A stretch of DNA of 64,000 nt from the NCBI GenBank assembly GCA_037137555.1, contig JBAXKA010000001.1:1874-65873 (forward strand), in the 5' to 3' direction. Positions 18,906-55,576 of this stretch are shown here, in pieces (position 1 is the first letter of the stretch; each line of letters starts with the position of its first letter). The position numbers and the translations under genes are program-made. The DNA comes from Candidatus Moraniibacteriota bacterium (GTDB taxonomy: Bacteria > Patescibacteriota > Minisyncoccia > Moranbacterales > UBA2206). Below the pieces are notes generated by a model. That model was given only the letters and a program-made list of their open reading frames with translations. It was not told where the DNA came from and ran no database searches.

Positions 18906-18925
18906 ATTTTTTGGTGATTATTTTC
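18875..18925. repeat. 51-bp direct repeat, copy 1 (contains the authentic trmD start codon and first 11 codons plus 7 bp upstream)
   Basis: GAGGAAAAATTGTGATGATGTCGAAACGCATATTTTTTGGTGATTATTTTC is identical to 21690-21740. Confidence 0.9.
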
Positions 18926-20000
18926 CAGATTTAGTTCGATTACAATTCTTACAAAGCATCTGGCAATTTTTTGAAATTGTTTTTCCGCCTTCGTGCCAAG
19001 GTGTGATATGATCAGCTTCCATTTCTTCTGTTTCAAAATGTTCTTTGCATTTTATGCAAATGCCTTTTTGTTTTTCATAAATTTCCCTTTTTTGTTTATC
19101 TGCAAAAGCACGGATATTTAAATATTTTTCATTTCTTGTCAGAACATAAGGATAAATTCCAGATTTTTTTGTTACATCTTCATCTTGCATTAGTTTTGTG
19201 ATTTCTTCTTCTAATTTTTCAAAATCAACTTCTTGATCTTTGAATCGATTGTATAAATTCCCAAAAGAAACGCCTTTCATTTCTTTGCGATAATTGGGAA
19301 AAACAGCTTTAATCCAATTTATTATGCTTTGAAAATAGAGCCACAACTCATTGGCGTTTGGCTTGTGCTGATTTTCTGCCATATACTGCTCAATGTTTTC
19401 ATCACTAATCCACGAAATAGCCGTTTCTAAATATTCTTGACGAATACTAGAACCATTTAAATAATCACTTCCAATACCATAGGCAGGGCAACCAGATTTA
19501 CTAAAATATCTTTTGGCATCAGTTAACCAAGTGCCAGTATAAATTGCATTTCGCAATTCTTGATCAGTTAATTTTTCACCAGCGATATTAATTGTTTTAA
19601 ACCAATCTAGTTTTTCCTTATCATTTCCCTCGCAAAAATAAACCATAAGTTTATAATTCAAAATTTGCTCTTGCTCTATGTCGGTAAGATTGTGAAAAGA
19701 TAAGTTATTTAGAAAAAAATTGCCTACCACATATTCGCAAATACTAATTGTGCGTTGTTGTCCGTCCAAAACTTCAAAAGTTCCATCTTCATTTTTCACC
19801 CAATACATTACATTTAATGGAAAACTTTTTTGCACAGTTTCAATCACTAAATCTCTTTGCTTATCCTTATACACAAATTCTCTTTGATATTTTGGACGGA
19901 TATTTAGTTTTCCACTATAGCCAACCACACCTTCTTCATCATTATTAGCATACGCATCAACAATTTCTCTGATTGCGATTTCTTGTAGTTTAATTTTCAT
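18918..20000 (-). CDS. DUF262 (ParB/GmrSD N-terminal-like, DGQQR motif) domain fused to a C-terminal HNH endonuclease domain
   Basis: LDGQQRTISI motif. C-terminus CIKCKEHFETEEMEADHITPWHEGGKTISKNCQMLCKNCNRTKSGK is an HNH/zinc-finger nuclease motif. Confidence 0.75.
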   Translation of the reverse strand: MKIKLQEIAIREIVDAYANNDEEGVVGYSGKLNIRPKYQREFVYKDKQRDLVIETVQKSFPLNVMYWVKNEDGTFEVLDGQQRTISICEYVVGNFFLNNLSFHNLTDIEQEQILNYKLMVYFCEGNDKEKLDWFKTINIAGEKLTDQELRNAIYTGTWLTDAKRYFSKSGCPAYGIGSDYLNGSSIRQEYLETAISWISDENIEQYMAENQHKPNANELWLYFQSIINWIKAVFPNYRKEMKGVSFGNLYNRFKDQEVDFEKLEEEITKLMQDEDVTKKSGIYPYVLTRNEKYLNIRAFADKQKREIYEKQKGICIKCKEHFETEEMEADHITPWHEGGKTISKNCQMLCKNCNRTKSGK

Positions 20001-20011
20001 AAATAGTATAA

Positions 20012-20299
20012 TTAAAAGTTATTTTTTCTAGCCAATTCTGGTAATTTTTCAAATTGATTATGTATCAACGCTTCTTTTTTTTCTCTTCTCCAACCTTGCA
20101 CTTGCTTTTCTCGATAAAATGCTTCATCAATTCTAGCATATTCTTCAAAATAAACTAATTTAACTGGCAATCTCTTTTTTGTGTGATTTGCACCTTTTCC
20201 TGATTGATGTTGAGCCAAACGAAATTCCAAATCTTTTGTACTTCCAGTGTAGTAACTACCATCAGCACATTCTAAAATATACATGTATCCTTTACTCAT
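20012..20299 (-). CDS. GIY-YIG nuclease family protein (short, about 95 aa)
   Basis: [31 protein letters not shown]...QGWRREKK. Start set at MSKGYMYIL (20299). The longer 151-aa ORF reads through the repeat array and is an artefact. Confidence 0.75.
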
Positions 20300-20640
20300 A
20301 CCCGTTGGTTGAGCTTGTCGAAACCAATACTTACTAATTCGCAGGTGTTGCCTTCGATAAGCATAGACATTGTGTGTTGCCTTCGACGGGTGTGTTGCCT
20401 TCGACGGGCTCAGGCAACGGGAACGCATCCGTTGGTTGAGCTTGTCGAAACCAACTGTCGAAACCAATCACCTACTCGTTGGTTGAGCTTGTCGAAACCA
20501 ACACTCACACCAATTCGCTGAGTGTTGCCTTCGATAAACTCAGGCAACGGAGAAGGGTGTTGCCTTCGACGGGCTCAGGCAACGGGAACGCATTGTTGGT
20601 TGAGCTTGTCGAAACCAACTATCGAAACCAACACCCACCT
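20300..20640. repeat. array of about 10 hairpin repeat units of two related types in alternating orientation
   Basis: Type A is CGTTGGTTGAGCTTGTCGAAACCAAC (4 near-perfect copies). Type B is GTGTTGCCTTCGACGGGCTCAGGCAACGG (2 full copies plus 3 partial or variant copies). Both share the architecture stem-TCGAC-nn-GCTC-stem, read on opposite strands. Confidence 0.8.
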
Positions 20641-21601
20641 AAATTTTCTTGTTTTTAATTAAAATTCTAAAATATGGACACTTTCCATTTATGCTTAAAT
20701 CTTTTTCATCATCACCTTTGCGAAATTTTATAATCTCAAACTGCTCCGGATTATATTTATCTAAAAAAGTAATCGGCACGCCCATCGTTCCGGCATAATC
20801 CATTGGGATATCTTTTGTCTTATTAATATTTATTGCATCATAATTATCATATTTTGGATAATCTTCTGGATTATATTGTTTGTATAAAATTAAATCTTCG
20901 TGTCGTTTATTTATTTCTAAGTTAGTGAACCAGACAACACCAGAAACTCTAATCATTCCATCCTTATGATCTCCAGCAGTTGCATAATCTTCATAATGCG
21001 TATTAATAAAATGTGCCGCCCCACCATTAAACCCATAGCCTAGCCATAATTTATCATCCTTGATCAATTTAAATATTTCTTTATATGTTATAGCATTTTG
21101 ATGTCCAATAATAATAAACTTCTTATCATACTCAACCAATTGTGCCACATATTCCCGAAACAAAGAAAAAGGCGGATTAGTCACCACGATATCAGCTTGC
21201 TTTAAAAGTTCAATACATTCAGGACTTCTGAAATCACCATTCTTTTTTAAATGCTTGATACCAATTTCTGAAATATCTGGCACTCGATTTTCATTTTTAT
21301 CGCCAATGTATTCCAAATAAATCGCTTTTTCAGAATTATTTTGACTGAACAAATCGACACTTTGATTTTTATAACAAGTTGTGATTAATTTTTTGAGTCC
21401 TAGAAATTCAAAATTATAGGAAAAATAATGAAAAAAATTGCTCACTCTTGGATCATCGCAATTGCAAAAAACTGTTTTGCCCTTGAAATGATTTTTATAA
21501 TGAGCTAACTCTCTAGTGATATCCGCAAGTTGTGTATAAAACTCATCATTTTTGGCTTTGTTGGCTTTATGTAAATTTTGATTGGAAGATTTTCCTGCCA
21601 T
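20639..21601 (-). CDS. N6-adenine DNA methyltransferase, EcoRI-methylase-like family
   Basis: NPPF motif IV (IVVTNPPFSLFREY). N-terminus DEFYTQLADITRELAHYKNHFKGKTVFCNCDDP and C-terminal PMDYAGTMGVPITFLDKYNPEQFEI recall the M.EcoRI family, recalled from memory rather than searched. Confidence 0.6.
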   Translation of the reverse strand: MAGKSSNQNLHKANKAKNDEFYTQLADITRELAHYKNHFKGKTVFCNCDDPRVSNFFHYFSYNFEFLGLKKLITTCYKNQSVDLFSQNNSEKAIYLEYIGDKNENRVPDISEIGIKHLKKNGDFRSPECIELLKQADIVVTNPPFSLFREYVAQLVEYDKKFIIIGHQNAITYKEIFKLIKDDKLWLGYGFNGGAAHFINTHYEDYATAGDHKDGMIRVSGVVWFTNLEINKRHEDLILYKQYNPEDYPKYDNYDAININKTKDIPMDYAGTMGVPITFLDKYNPEQFEIIKFRKGDDEKDLSINGKCPYFRILIKNKKI

Positions 21602-21689
21602 AAAATTGAATAAATTGCTTAATTATTTTCAGCATATCTTTTTTTTATTTTGTGCCGTATTTCTATTATACCAAAACAAATCAAATCTC

Positions 21690-21740
21690 GAGGAAAAATT
21701 GTGATGATGTCGAAACGCATATTTTTTGGTGATTATTTTC
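21690..21740. repeat. 51-bp direct repeat, copy 2 (a dead trmD 5' fragment: ATG then 10 matching codons, then divergence)
   Basis: Identical to 18875-18925. Overlaps the stop codon of the downstream ATPase gene. Confidence 0.9.
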
Positions 21741-23034
21741 TTAAAAACTCCTCAAAAAAGTTTTTTATTTCAATCTTTCCTCCTTCTACCTTTATCTCTT
21801 CCGAATAACCCATCGTAATAAGCTGAGCTTTTTTAAGTTTAAATTTTTTCATCGCTTCTTTCAATCCAGCGATTTCTCTCTCTCTGTTTCCCTCATTCAA
21901 CTCCCAACAAGCATTTATTGCTTTTTCAATTTTAACGCCTTTTCGCAAAAGAAAATCTATTTCATTTTTTCCTTTCCAATAAAAAATATCTTCGCCTTTT
22001 CGACGATATTCTAGAAAAACCATATTTTCAAAAATACGCCCCAAATTTTCACTGAATCGAAAAGAAACTGCTCGATAAATTCCCAAATCAATAACATACA
22101 CTTTCTCCGGATTAGCTTTTTGCTTCAAATAAGAATAGTCAAATAAATTTATTCCTTGAGTTAAAAAAACATCCTGAGCGTAAGTAAAAAATTTATTCGC
22201 CGTAGGTTGAGAAATAGCCAGAGTTTTTTCCGCCCGATAACCGGAAAAGCTAGTAGCAATACTAGTTACTAGGTTTATATAATACTCCTTAATCTTTTTA
22301 GTATCTCGCACATCATATCTCTGCACAATATCTTTTTCGATAATAGAAGAATAATAATCTTTTAAGAGTTGTAATTTATCTTGAACTTTCGAACTCAGAA
22401 CCACGCGTGGAAAACCACCATACCGCAAATATTCCATAAACTGATTTTTCAATGCCGGCAGTTCCCTTCCGCCAGAAAAATTAATTAGCTTTTGTTTATT
22501 TTTAAAAAGCAGAAACTCCCAAAAACTCAAAGGAAATATTTCATTAGTATAAATTCTTCCCGTAAGTGCTGTACCATATTCCTTGGAAAGTAACTTGGAG
22601 GACGAACCAGTTATATAGAATTTTATTCGTTCTTCCCGATCATGGAGACCACGAACAAATTTTTCCCATCCGTCTATATACTGAACTTCATCAAGCACAA
22701 TTAAAATTTTTCCTTCGGGACTGAATTTTTCCAAATAAGCATCCAGCAATTGAGCGAGAAACTCCAATTTCAGTTGTGGTGCGAAGGCTGGCTCTTCAAA
22801 ATTGATATAGAGAGTATTCTCCTTGGGAAGTCCCTGCTCAACAGCTTTTTTTAAAACCTGAAGTAAAATAGTAGATTTTCCTGATCGCCTAATTCCAGAA
22901 ACTATTGAAACTTCTTTGATATTCTTTTGTCGCAACAATTCTTTCACATAGCCAACCCGCTCTATGCCTGTTTCACGCACACCACCCCACAAATTCCAAT
23001 AAGCCAGAATTTCAATGATTTGCACTTTATTCAT
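21733..23034 (-). CDS. AAA ATPase (AAA_14/DUF4143-like, 'ATP-binding protein' family), copy 1 of 3
   Basis: Walker A GIRRSGKST, Walker B ILIVLDEVQY. Paralogous to 36581-37891 and, more distantly, 35226-36365. Confidence 0.75.
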   Translation of the reverse strand: MNKVQIIEILAYWNLWGGVRETGIERVGYVKELLRQKNIKEVSIVSGIRRSGKSTILLQVLKKAVEQGLPKENTLYINFEEPAFAPQLKLEFLAQLLDAYLEKFSPEGKILIVLDEVQYIDGWEKFVRGLHDREERIKFYITGSSSKLLSKEYGTALTGRIYTNEIFPLSFWEFLLFKNKQKLINFSGGRELPALKNQFMEYLRYGGFPRVVLSSKVQDKLQLLKDYYSSIIEKDIVQRYDVRDTKKIKEYYINLVTSIATSFSGYRAEKTLAISQPTANKFFTYAQDVFLTQGINLFDYSYLKQKANPEKVYVIDLGIYRAVSFRFSENLGRIFENMVFLEYRRKGEDIFYWKGKNEIDFLLRKGVKIEKAINACWELNEGNREREIAGLKEAMKKFKLKKAQLITMGYSEEIKVEGGKIEIKNFFEEFLRK

Positions 23035-53585: not shown

Positions 53586-54791
53586 ATGAACACGATGGGT
53601 TCATTGAGAGCGTTTTTCGCAGCTTTTCCCCGCATGGTACAAGGAGAATTGCGTGGTCTGAGGAATCTGCTTCTGCGGTTAGCAGGAGCACTTTGTTTTC
53701 TTTTTCTTTTCCAGCTGACGATGGACAGTTATATTTTTTCGTCTGTCGTAGGAATTGTTTTGTGGATATTTAGTTTTTTATGGATAGTAAATATCCGCAG
53801 GATAACAAATATGGCAATCGTCGGAGAGGCTTTTGAAGCTCTTCATATAACACCAATAACACCCGCCGAAAGATCAGCTGAAGGGGCTGCCGCAATAGTG
53901 GTCAATCCCCTCAATGATCTTTTCTGGCGGGTTTCGCTGCAACTGTTTTTTTTCATGACAGTTGCAGCGTTAGTTGTTCCGCTGTTACCATTGCGGAACA
54001 ACCCCGCGCTAGTTTTTCTTTTCCCCTTGATGCTAGTCGCTTCGGCGATTGCATTTAGGGGAGCCGTGCTCATCACGGCGAATATATTGTCCGGAATTTT
54101 CATTGCTGGACTAATCATGTTTCATTGCGGGATGTTATTTCTCCCGCAAATTCTATTAATTTTCCCATCATTCGCAACAGAGTATGTTGCGAAGTTCAGA
54201 ACGGGAAATCTCGCTGGCAGAAATGCTAGCGAGCTTGGTGAAATCGTCACAATTCGTGAGCGACAACGCCAAGAAATGGTCGCCGAGGCTATGGGAAAAG
54301 CTCGGCGATGGCAAGAACAAAATCGGGGGAAGCCTCTCCCTGTGGAAATTGAGCGAGACATAGAGGCAGCGAAGCAAGGCCTGAGTCTGGCTGAATTACA
54401 AGCCAGACTCAAGGCCGAAGCCGACGCCAAAGCGAAAGCCGAGGCGGAGGCAAAAGCCAAGGCCGAAAAAGCCGAAGCAGAAGCAAAGGCGAAAGCCCAA
54501 GCTGAAGCCAAGGCTTTGGAACTCCGCCGACAAGCTGAAAAGCTTGAGGCAGAAAAAAACAAAATAAAAACCATCAGCAATGGGTATGTTTTACGCCCTG
54601 CCGATGGTGGCGTCGTCTGCTTGACGATGCAGGCGGGCGACTGGAATGTTTTTCCAGCTAATACAAGAATGAAGGAAGCGGGTGATAAGATTCCAAGGGA
54701 AACCGGAGGGGAAATGTTCGTTTCTAGAGAAACGACCTCATGCTTTTTCCCCTCCCCTGGCACGAGGGAAATCGTGCTAACGAAAAAATAA
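53586..54791 (+). CDS. hypothetical membrane protein with a long Ala/Lys/Glu coiled-coil and a C-terminal globular region
   Basis: RBS AGGAGG. About six TM helices (residues about 25-200), then KAEADAKAKAEAEAKAKAEKAEAEAKAKAQAEAKALELRRQAEKLEAEKNK, then a 70-aa C-terminal region. Confidence 0.5.
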   Translation: MNTMGSLRAFFAAFPRMVQGELRGLRNLLLRLAGALCFLFLFQLTMDSYIFSSVVGIVLWIFSFLWIVNIRRITNMAIVGEAFEALHITPITPAERSAEGAAAIVVNPLNDLFWRVSLQLFFFMTVAALVVPLLPLRNNPALVFLFPLMLVASAIAFRGAVLITANILSGIFIAGLIMFHCGMLFLPQILLIFPSFATEYVAKFRTGNLAGRNASELGEIVTIRERQRQEMVAEAMGKARRWQEQNRGKPLPVEIERDIEAAKQGLSLAELQARLKAEADAKAKAEAEAKAKAEKAEAEAKAKAQAEAKALELRRQAEKLEAEKNKIKTISNGYVLRPADGGVVCLTMQAGDWNVFPANTRMKEAGDKIPRETGGEMFVSRETTSCFFPSPGTREIVLTKK

Positions 54792-54880: not shown

Positions 54881-55576
54881 TCATCTTAATAAGAAATCCA
54901 CTGTTTTAATTGCAATAAATCCAGATAACGCCACAACCAAACCAATAATCGAAGCCACCATTGTTTTCTTGGCTTTTTCAACCATCTTCTCATCCGTTGC
55001 TACTAGAAAATATTGAAATCCGGAAATTATAAATCCAATAATTGCAATAATCCCAACGATACTCAAAAGCCAATCAACAACATTAGTGAGAATACCTTTT
55101 ACTAAATCTGGATTGGCTGGTAATCCTACATCTGGAATATCTAAGTCACCTCCAGATGTTCCACTTTTTGTAGCTGAACAACTAACAGAATCACATGTTC
55201 CAGTGAGTGCACAACTCCAAGTCCATGGACCAGTCCCAGTAACAGAAGTGTTTGTTCCCGTAGAACAAAGATTAGTAGTAGGTTTACTTGTAAATGGACC
55301 AGAAGAACCGCATACACAGAGAGTTGCAGATCCACTTTTTGTAGCCGAACAATTAACGGAATCGCATACCCCAACAGCATCACAACTCCACTGCCACGGA
55401 CCAGCTCCTGTAACAGAAGTGTTATTTCCCGTAGTGCAAAGACCAGTGGTAGGCTTACTTGCGAATGGACCAGAAGAACCGCAAGTACAAGGTGCTGCCA
55501 AAACCTGCTCTGTCATCAAAAACCCACCCCCGAAAACTATCACCATCATCAAAAACAATTTCATTTTATTTTGCAT
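54881..55576 (-). CDS. secreted protein with two tandem about 55-aa Cys-containing repeats and a C-terminal VirB2/TrbC-like (T4SS-pilin-like) hydrophobic module
   Basis: Internal repeat C(T/V)CGSSGPF(A/T)SKPTT(G/N)LC(T/S)TG(N/T)NTSVTG(A/T)GPW(Q/T)WSC...CDSV(N/S)CSATKSG occurs twice. C-terminus VVDWLLSIVGIIAIIGFIISGFQYFLVATDEKMVEKAKKTMVASIIGLVVAL. Confidence 0.5.
   Translation of the reverse strand: MQNKMKLFLMMVIVFGGGFLMTEQVLAAPCTCGSSGPFASKPTTGLCTTGNNTSVTGAGPWQWSCDAVGVCDSVNCSATKSGSATLCVCGSSGPFTSKPTTNLCSTGTNTSVTGTGPWTWSCALTGTCDSVSCSATKSGTSGGDLDIPDVGLPANPDLVKGILTNVVDWLLSIVGIIAIIGFIISGFQYFLVATDEKMVEKAKKTMVASIIGLVVALSGFIAIKTVDFLLR

Follow-up and report, generated by a model that had tools for sequence, protein, structure and literature searches.

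What is the array of short palindromic repeats that separates an EcoRI-family DNA methyltransferase gene from a small GIY-YIG nuclease gene in a metagenome-assembled genome (MAG) of Candidatus Moraniibacteriota (Patescibacteria, candidate phyla radiation (CPR)), and why does it lie there? The stretch analysed, here called the window, is 64 kb long, and exact protein matches to MEI7425311-15 assign it to this lineage. The array belongs, as a characteristic companion, to one specific GIY-YIG gene that is highly conserved and horizontally spread. This pairing of gene and hairpins recurs in many bacterial phyla, and other phyla also have the same hairpin in dispersed gene-less copies. In the window, array and gene together are inserted into a restriction-modification (R-M) operon. 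By analogy with repetitive extragenic palindromic (REP) sequences and their RAYT transposases, with the IS200/IS605 insertion sequences and with the structure-specific activity of Slx1 relatives, we see about an even chance that the array is the hairpin module of a small selfish, probably mobile cassette, whose nuclease would nick the hairpins as DNA and thereby drive movement or maintenance.

A single 25-nt hairpin design with the consensus GNTGSY-TTCGR-N4/5-CTCA-RSCANC is present in 11 copies (full, variant or partial), in both orientations, at window positions 20303-20638. A sequence-only reading of the window had described two repeat types, A and B, as one design in two orientations, and this is borne out. 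Type A (GTTGGTTGAGCTTGTCGAAACCAAC) starts at 20304 (one mismatch), 20431, 20478 and 20595, two identical copies of type B (GTTGCCTTCGACGGGCTCAGGCAAC) start at 20394 and 20559, and the reverse complement of A shares the pattern GTTGNNTTCGACNNGCTCANNCAAC with the B unit. A variant B' with a TTCGATAA loop starts at 20347, with a decayed 3' arm, and at 20524, and half-A units (TCGAAACCAA) start at 20458 and 20622. In single-stranded form the hairpin sequences are GTTGGTTTCGACAAGCTCAACCAAC and GTTGCCTGAGCCCGTCGAAGGCAAC. Units with TTCG...CTCA on the GIY-YIG gene strand are called F, and those in the opposite orientation R. The core TCGANNNGCTC occurs six times in the window (0.93 expected), always within the array. 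Type A at up to three mismatches had no match in 100 shuffles, the unit patterns are absent from shuffled sequence, and no hairpin unit is found outside the array anywhere in the 64-kb window.

The companion gene belongs to a very large family: at least 8000 candidates were scored in the homology search, 7998 of them with E <= 1e-5. The best 120 of these at least 8000 homologues are 74-97% identical to the window protein, with named sources including Bacteroidota, Candidatus Kuenenia and Calditrichota, and identity is about 80% across Bacteroidota, Planctomycetota, Calditrichota and Patescibacteria. Of 80 metagenomic loci sampled, whose GIY-YIG genes are about 80% identical, 75 show one or more hairpin units in the 600 bp that follow the gene, and units upstream as well are present in 32 of the 80. 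Over the first 100 bp behind the gene there are 1.27 units per 100 bp; past 600 bp this falls to roughly 0-0.07. The two orientations are balanced across the 80 loci (99 F, 97 R), the usual order being F then R. Thus, of the link to adjacent nucleases that the sequence-only reading had suggested, the part concerning the GIY-YIG gene stands, and the part concerning the neighbouring HNH enzyme does not.

A scan of a genome collection by hairpin pattern alone, with up to 8 kb taken around each hit, returned at least 119 stretches, whose proportions are not a census. Those listed are mostly from Chloroflexota, with many per genome; other sources are KSB1, Bacteroidales, Cytophagia, Saprospiraceae, Treponema, Cellulomonadaceae and Uliginosibacterium. 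Four of the 119 stretches listed (from Anaerolineae, Roseilinea and Treponema) contain a GIY-YIG gene, each within about 150 bp of a hairpin. The gene-less hairpins lie in either orientation inside several different frames resembling miniature inverted-repeat transposable elements (MITEs), often as an R-F pair, and at a distance from the seed match these pattern-seeded, mostly Chloroflexota, genomes contain further gene-less units, about 0.03 per kb. One such family, in Caldilineaceae/Chloroflexota, has the ends CTTCTCAATATTTCGGGG ... CCCCAGATTATTGAGAAG around an R-F pair, and in a second family, of Roseiflexus type, ends of the ACCTGGACAATC type enclose a single unit (L005, L009, L018, L034, L043, L060, L098, L100 and others, loci being cited by L numbers). 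Several distinct repeat families thus have one central hairpin in common. No pair of empty and filled sites was found for a gene-less copy. The proliferating REP- or MITE-like behaviour proposed earlier is therefore seen in other phyla, with dispersed copies in Chloroflexota and others, and not in the window, where no copy lies outside the array.

The hairpin stems are under structural selection. In 150 distinct units picked by loop only (143 from GIY-YIG loci and 7 from the window), 81% of the cells of the seven stem pairs are standard pairs. Shuffling gives 60%, with none of 500 shuffles as high as the real units, and slid controls give 26-54%. Double-sided changes number 203, against 78 in shuffles, in agreement with the covariation first noticed in the window alone. 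Stem positions 2 and 5 switch freely between G-C, C-G, T-A and A-T, and the stem positions G, T and G are strongly conserved; the invariance of the loop ends TTCG and CTCA follows from the way the sample was drawn. A unit is a 6-7-bp stem, free to covary in sequence, that closes a 13-14-nt loop with fixed ends, TTCGR...CTCA. Within an array the stems of F and R units mostly differ from one another, with compensation inside each stem, which favours each unit folding alone over F-R pairing as the selected feature. The minimum-energy folds of the window array pair A with B units rather than each unit with itself. As single-stranded DNA the plus-strand array folds far better than shuffles (z = -8.6).

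The loop class tracks the class of the approximately 15 residues that follow the catalytic core of the nuclease, in three classes:

Tail ...LAxAYRD: loop TTCGAGnnCCTCA, 31 of 35 loci agree.
Tail ...LHELAxCMNE: loop with 12-nt cores (TTCGGCTCCGCTCA and relatives), 19 of 20 loci agree.
Tail ...KNYTQ/KK: loop TTCGRCARGCTCA, 5 of 7 loci agree.

The tail of the window nuclease, which was outside the scripted classification, is near the KK-type tail of L120, and its loops (TTCGACAAGCTCA) place it in the third class. A match of this kind would be expected if the tail recognises the loop.

The position of the array becomes clear from its neighbours. The minus-strand order is AAA_14/DUF4143 ATPase, EcoRI-family methyltransferase, array, GIY-YIG, GmrSD_N + HNH, TrmD and FtsW, and the gene assignments of the sequence-only reading for the three genes around the array were right:

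20639..21601, minus strand: EcoRI-family N6-adenine DNA methyltransferase (PF13651, 2.8e-138; PADLOC MTase_II).
20012..20299, minus strand: GIY-YIG nuclease gene, 95 aa, minimal Slx1/UPF0213 type (PF01541, 6.7e-18, profile positions 1-76 of 78).
18918..20000, minus strand: GmrSD_N (DUF262) + HNH endonuclease (PADLOC REase_II, full length, 5.7e-142).
20001..20638, minus strand: whole insertion (array, GIY-YIG gene and an 11-bp spacer), from the methyltransferase stop to the restriction-enzyme ATG.

The methyltransferase and the GmrSD_N/HNH protein, which match the PADLOC models MTase_II and REase_II, form an R-M pair. In homologous modules the distance from the methyltransferase stop to the restriction-enzyme start is 2-10 bp, and in the window it is 638 bp. 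Thus, array and GIY-YIG gene are an insertion of about 640 bp that splits a compact two-gene type II R-M module. The restriction-enzyme homologues (80-86% identity) come from a metagenome-assembled contig, Flavobacterium and Gracilibacteria, each directly after its methyltransferase, and the hairpin is absent from these empty junctions. Empty sites were found only among R-M homologues at this level of identity; in the search of close relatives, every strain that shares the window methyltransferase also has the insertion. The same insertion is present in strains with an identical methyltransferase protein, and array length there is about 340 or 437 bp, with differences of whole units and in loop variants, so that array turnover between strains is rapid. 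Several contigs terminate at the hairpin array.

The boundaries of the cassette can be seen at some other loci, where it is bracketed by target duplications of 28-43 bp. In L183 an exact 28-bp duplication of a tRNA-like 3' end surrounds a hairpins-GIY-hairpins arrangement, and in L128 a 33-bp duplication of the hsdM 3' end does so with one mismatch; in both, F and R units bracket the GIY-YIG gene as inverted copies. Since the hairpins of L128 and L183 lie inside the duplications, they belong to the inserted element, and the earlier suggestion of a pre-existing cluster of homing sites is unlikely. Flanking copies of 43 bp in the L133 group and of 30 bp in L120 differ mainly by synonymous changes, which suggests that one copy came from another R-M locus and travels with the cassette. 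The tRNA-like sequence of L183 (about 765-856) has no ARAGORN or Rfam call. Just inside the right-hand duplication of the same locus (760-1500) is a remnant of a type I hsdM 3' end (GACGAAATTCAAAATAATTAAAAAAG), and that cassette therefore earlier resided in a type I locus.

Cassettes are commonly found in type I R-M operons, just upstream of hsdS. An HsdS specificity subunit follows the cassette in 26 of 58 loci, and the upstream neighbour is in the N6-methyltransferase cluster in 20 of 66 loci and HsdR in 6. Remaining upstream neighbours include Bro-N, ORF6N, YhcG or Fic proteins, whose genes are of kinds often found inside type I R-M loci. Five near-identical cassettes (L131, L134, L135, L147, L150) have the same upstream Bro-N gene and arrays that differ in 21-bp steps. 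Their downstream hsdS genes share the first few codons and then diverge; thus, the cassette sits where hsdS alleles differ. In L146, L172, L180 and L184 there are two or three tandem GIY-YIG copies with near-identical hairpin arrays between them, as would result from unequal crossing-over between arrays or from amplification of a tandem or rolling type.

Three features of the window array had escaped the sequence-only reading, the splitting of the R-M pair being one. The others are that the array consists of two tandem super-units of about 170 bp (20303-20476 and 20477-20641; 89% column identity), and that it takes up everything between the methyltransferase stop codon (20639-20641) and a point 3 nt short of the GIY-YIG ATG (20299). 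It lies only upstream of the GIY-YIG gene, with the gene-strand order F R R F F R F, and its components are as follows:

20303..20328, minus strand: hairpin A1, an F unit (gene strand ATTGGTTTCGACAAGCTCAACCAACG) with one stem mismatch, ending 3 nt before the GIY-YIG ATG.
20345..20373, plus strand: decayed B' unit (GTGTTGCCTTCGATAAGCATAGACA...), with 5' arm and loop start retained and the 3' arm gone.
20372..20389, plus strand: truncated B 5' half, starting at 20374, the first copy of the 18-bp tandem duplication GTGTGTTGCCTTCGACGG.
20392..20420, plus strand: complete B unit GTGTTGCCTTCGACGGGCTCAGGCAACGG, an R unit on the gene strand.
20430..20455, minus strand: hairpin A2, F on the gene strand.
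20456..20468, minus strand: half-unit TGTCGAAACCAAT, a 13-bp tandem partial copy of A2.
20477..20502, minus strand: hairpin A3, which opens the second super-unit.
20522..20550, plus strand: B' unit with loop TTCGATAAACTCA.
20557..20585, plus strand: complete B unit, identical to the copy at 20392.
20594..20619, minus strand: hairpin A4.
20620..20638, minus strand: terminal half-unit TATCGAAACCAAC and then ACCCAC, directly next to the methyltransferase stop codon.

A3 and the B' unit at 20522 form a 31-nt imperfect inverted repeat with an 11-nt spacer. Neighbouring units lie at uneven distances (13-130 bp), the stretches between them are themselves duplicated, and each of the two half-unit duplications shows a period of 13 bp. 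Signs of polarity are mixed: the ACCCAC end and the position of the half-unit after A fit the plus strand, and the F-before-R order fits the minus strand. The array end ...CGAAGGCAACACCCAC also closes the arrays at the unrelated loci L120, L126 and L128. A 12-bp repeat, ATTCTAAAATAT (20269 and 20664), was considered as a target duplication and rejected, as it lies within conserved MYILEC codons and is probably due to chance.

The host module has features of its own. The two-gene R-M module (18918-21601; L209-L212) is about 80% identical across CPR phyla, Flavobacterium and Mucilaginibacter, with at least 8000 matches at E <= 1e-20, and therefore looks horizontally mobile as well. Its endonuclease (360 aa) bears the NCBI name DUF262 domain-containing protein, and the PADLOC model is that of a type II restriction enzyme. 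Immediately before the methyltransferase lies the AAA_14/DUF4143 ATPase gene (21733-23034, minus strand), a PADLOC candidate (PDC-S01, 2.7e-106). The sister strain L207 lacks this gene but otherwise keeps the order M-array-GIY-R-TrmD-FtsW, which makes it a strain-level insertion or deletion beside the R-M module. Elsewhere in the window, a 171-bp tandem repeat (55160-55483; 1.9 copies, 80% matches) lies within a minus-strand open reading frame, and 24-bp repeats (54410-54514) lie in the neighbouring one. Both are situated in the window's only GC-rich stretch (42-47% GC against about 33%), which has no rRNA or other Rfam match.

The nuclease itself is small. GIY-YIG is the sole Pfam domain of the 95-aa protein, whose best PDB matches are 1zg2 (9.7e-16) and 1ywl (3.9e-11), both UPF0213. 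Residues Y7, Y16/Y17, G19, R27, H31 and E64 are invariant across 26 homologues. The prokaryotic Slx1-like branch is the minimal stand-alone form of the GIY-YIG fold, and the structure-specific nuclease Slx1 is among the relatives of the protein (PMC1564403). None of the PADLOC and NCBIfam models, searched for defence-system membership, matches the nuclease. A phage or plasmid origin was also considered and rejected: megablast of window 19000-22000 against phage records gave no match, the 2.9 million viral contigs of IMG/VR contain no close GIY-YIG relative and no hairpin match, and plasmid homologues are all below 50% identity. The C-terminal coding region (20030-20056, minus strand; FEKLPELA or FDKLPELA) resembles an F unit translated as F-D/E-K-L, and in some homologues (L125, L128, L148) a perfect hairpin unit (e.g. 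GACTTCGACAAGCTCAGTC) is found at that position. The repeats may derive from, or invade, the 3' end of the GIY-YIG gene.

At other loci the reading frame of the nuclease gene often continues into the repeats. Many database members of the family are 110-167 aa long for this reason, with repeat-encoded tail peptides such as FDKLSHQ, PSTSSG, GGFENLSHQ, LPEALEG, SAQPP and EVEGS. The GIY-YIG frame traverses the whole array in about 30 of the approximately 60 loci with readable flanks and then stops at -9 to +35 nt relative to the ATG of the next gene; in about 20 it ends ahead of the array or within it. The frame in which the units are read varies from locus to locus. Tandem repeats next to the gene were analysed in 72 non-redundant loci: of their 114 periods 93 (82%) are divisible by 3, as are nearly all of those within hairpin arrays (15, 18, 21, 24 and so on). 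An array after the gene is evidently kept open, perhaps so as to maintain translational coupling to hsdS. The window array differs, as it lies 5' of the gene, stops break every reading frame and periods of 13 bp occur. This difference indicates that the multiple-of-3 rule comes from selection and not from the duplication mechanism. The broken frames and 13-bp periods likewise indicate that the window array is not coding, and a single reading frame through it was rejected.

Taken with these observations, the cassette would work as follows. Its only gene would be that of the 95-aa Slx1/UPF0213-type nuclease, and F and R units would be the same double-stranded site in opposite orientations, acting as DNA stem-loops extruded from single-stranded or supercoiled DNA. 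The nuclease would recognise and nick these units, and the nick would set off recombination or copying, by which the cassette moves or is maintained. Gene-less copies would arise from the units as well, in the way that REP sequences multiply with RAYT and hairpin ends with IS200/IS605 transposases, and arrays would grow, shrink and flip through slippage and recombination between units.

Several points weigh against this mechanism. Judged from its sequence, the protein is a catalytic domain with a short tail and no recognisable DNA-binding module. The window array is 5' of the gene and not 3', an upstream-only arrangement that is the less common one, and the window has no convincing target duplication (the methyltransferase end compared with the GIY-YIG end or restriction-enzyme start is A-rich and ambiguous). 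Among the pattern-found loci listed, 115 of 119 have no GIY-YIG gene in a stretch of up to 8 kb. The match of tail and loop could equally be expected from physical linkage, as the tail codons abut the array. The array is translated at most homologous loci, so that there is some constraint at the level of translation. Binding and cutting of the hairpins by the nuclease, action at the DNA level and the mode of movement are what we infer.

Other explanations have to be set beside the cassette reading. The hairpins could instead be an operon element at the RNA level, which in a polycistronic R-M mRNA would stabilise or process the transcript or tune translation, sustaining expression of the inserted nuclease gene and of the restriction or specificity gene behind it. 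The array shares one strand with its three neighbouring genes and contains nothing that resembles a promoter or terminator, and its minus strand as RNA folds far better than shuffles (z = -6.8); at other loci, the frame that runs to the next start and the multiple-of-3 periods suggest coupled expression. An RNA role is nevertheless unlikely. As RNA, F and R units would have unlike loops, but the two are found equally often and are both conserved. Mismatches on the gene strand are G.T in 7 cases and A.C in 8, with no wobble enrichment on the transcribed strand, and the dispersed gene-less copies of other phyla occur in both orientations. It is these three features that favour action in DNA rather than RNA. 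Translational coupling, moreover, cannot explain the window copy, with its 13-bp periods and no frame across it. At the gathering threshold of Rfam 15, the window and 20 related loci gave tRNAs only, with no match in the array. The best sub-threshold scores were 18.7 and 17.9 bits, the latter to RF02901, which shows the same R...F pair and has a gathering score of 97; a known RNA family was thus rejected, the permissive scan giving only chance-level matches and this weak resemblance. The structured RNA that the sequence-only reading had offered as a candidate is accordingly not upheld. Intrinsic terminators consist of a GC-rich stem, a 3-8-nt loop and a run of T. None is seen at 19800-21900, where the loops of 11-13 nt have no T tract.

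There is similarly a small chance that the hairpins are independent REP- or MITE-like repeats, selfish or of the host, beside which the GIY-YIG gene inserts preferentially as a homing-type element. Hairpins as landing pads would account for the 115 stretches that lack the gene and for the several MITE-like frames in Chloroflexota, and L183 is inserted at a tRNA-like T-arm that is itself a hairpin with TTCGA in its loop. However, at loci with visible target duplications the hairpins are part of the insert, relatives with an empty R-M junction have no hairpin in it, there is no second copy in the 64-kb window, and loop type tracks the tail class of the nuclease. It is quite improbable that the array is a functionless by-product, made of unselected scars or slippage from repeated cleavage and repair, or from palindrome instability, around a nuclease gene. 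The strong array differences between near-identical strains, the half-units amplified in tandem and decayed units such as that at 20345-20373 would all follow from such a process, but conservation of the TTCG...CTCA loop ends and of several stem positions extends over at least seven phyla, with covarying stems, a pattern that is hard to obtain without selection or active template copying. For the window it is very improbable that the array serves to encode a low-complexity C-terminal extension or linker of the nuclease (GGFENLSHQ, LPEALEG), with palindromy secondary. The array here is upstream of the gene, with stops in every frame and 13-bp duplications. At other loci the extended family proteins, the share of repeat periods divisible by 3 and the frames that reach the next gene speak for a coding role, whereas the different frames in use and the loci that stop before or inside the array speak against it, and covarying stems and the use of both orientations would be left unexplained.

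Among known systems, the array is of the kind of nuclease-associated palindromic repeats, and by analogy its arrangement works most like REP/RAYT. Like REP/REPIN sequences with RAYT (TnpA_REP; REPtrons), the units are short palindromes, single or in inverted doublets, that flank one small nuclease-type gene, are dispersed in many gene-less copies in some genomes, and have stems that covary around conserved bases. However, the partner here is GIY-YIG and not a Y1/HUH transposase, with no other gene between the flanking R-M genes. The GTAG/CGTC head is absent, units starting with G-N-T-G and having their conserved bases in the loop (TTCG, CTCA). The gene lies inside R-M operons, and arrays are often translated in frame. 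REP sequences have tens to hundreds of dispersed extragenic copies per genome; within the 64-kb window no unit lies outside the array, and dispersed copies do occur in other phyla. IS200/IS605 elements, whose subterminal hairpins are recognised as single-stranded DNA, share the imperfect hairpins at or near their ends as presumed cis sites and the small single-gene form, but the cassette has no Y1 transposase and no TnpB (Pfam finds GIY-YIG only), its hairpins are multiple and in both orientations, and the target duplications at some loci contrast with IS200/IS605, which makes none. MITEs are short elements with terminal inverted repeats and flanking target-site duplications that have their ends in common with an autonomous element; here, inverted F/R copies bracket the GIY-YIG gene at some loci (L128, L183), and Chloroflexota have gene-less pairs.

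Free-standing GIY-YIG homing endonuclease genes (T4 Seg, I-TevI family) are likewise wedged between two conserved, co-transcribed host genes, with evidence of spread between homologous loci and of flanking sequence carried over; the mostly synonymous differences between hsdM-end flanking copies are as expected if one copy travels with the cassette. The nuclease differs in belonging to the Slx1/UPF0213 branch and not the HEase/UvrC branch, and in having 95 aa and no NUMOD, zinc-finger or helix-turn-helix tail, where homing enzymes usually exceed 200 aa and have a DNA-binding region. It also has no close relative in the 2.9 million viral contigs, and hairpin arrays accompany it at 75 of 80 loci, while homing endonuclease genes are without arrays. 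With Slx1/UPF0213 proteins (PDB 1zg2, 1ywl) it shares the minimal catalytic domain and the stand-alone form of about 90-110 aa. As eukaryotic Slx1 cuts branched DNA, recognition of hairpins or cruciforms is plausible for the partner nuclease; cis repeats or mobile behaviour were not found reported for this family in the searchable literature. RF02901 (AaHKsRNA41, Aggregatibacter sRNA 41) has a consensus beginning CUGAGCUUGCCGAAGC ... UUCGGCAAGCUCAG, with the same R/F loop pair. The match (window 20477-20549, minus strand) falls far short of the gathering score, so that the array is not a member, and the other parts of this 187-nt gammaproteobacterial transcript are absent here. This resemblance suggests that Pasteurellaceae, too, have and transcribe the hairpin pair. 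As the sequence-only reading had recognised, the array is not CRISPR: closely spaced short repeats beside nuclease genes are the likeness, and the two orientations, irregular 13-130-bp spacing, repeated 'spacers', R-M neighbours and the absence of cas genes rule it out.

No element combining GIY-YIG with hairpins, or GIY-YIG with an R-M junction, was found described in the searchable literature, in which few subscription-journal papers were within reach. A tentative and rather doubtful extension of the cassette reading is that it represents a previously unrecognised class of prokaryotic mobile element, in which an Slx1-like GIY-YIG nuclease of about 95 aa would be the only mobility protein and, through its own loop-conserved DNA hairpins, would move a cassette of about 0.4-1 kb. 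This would include preferential targeting of gene junctions in R-M operons and in-trans mobilisation of gene-less hairpin pairs, such as those of the Chloroflexota MITE-like families, as a GIY-YIG counterpart of REP/RAYT.

For genome analysis, hairpin arrays of this kind break metagenomic assemblies and inflate gene calls, producing nuclease 'proteins' of 110-167 aa with repeat-encoded tails. The niche of the cassette, between methyltransferase and specificity or restriction genes and often with a frame open to the next start, suggests a parasite or modulator of R-M operons, which could promote the exchange of R-M modules. If the nuclease truly works on the hairpins, this would be the first prokaryotic repeat or mobile system driven by a GIY-YIG enzyme, and it would give a function to the very large, uncharacterised UPF0213/Slx1-like family.

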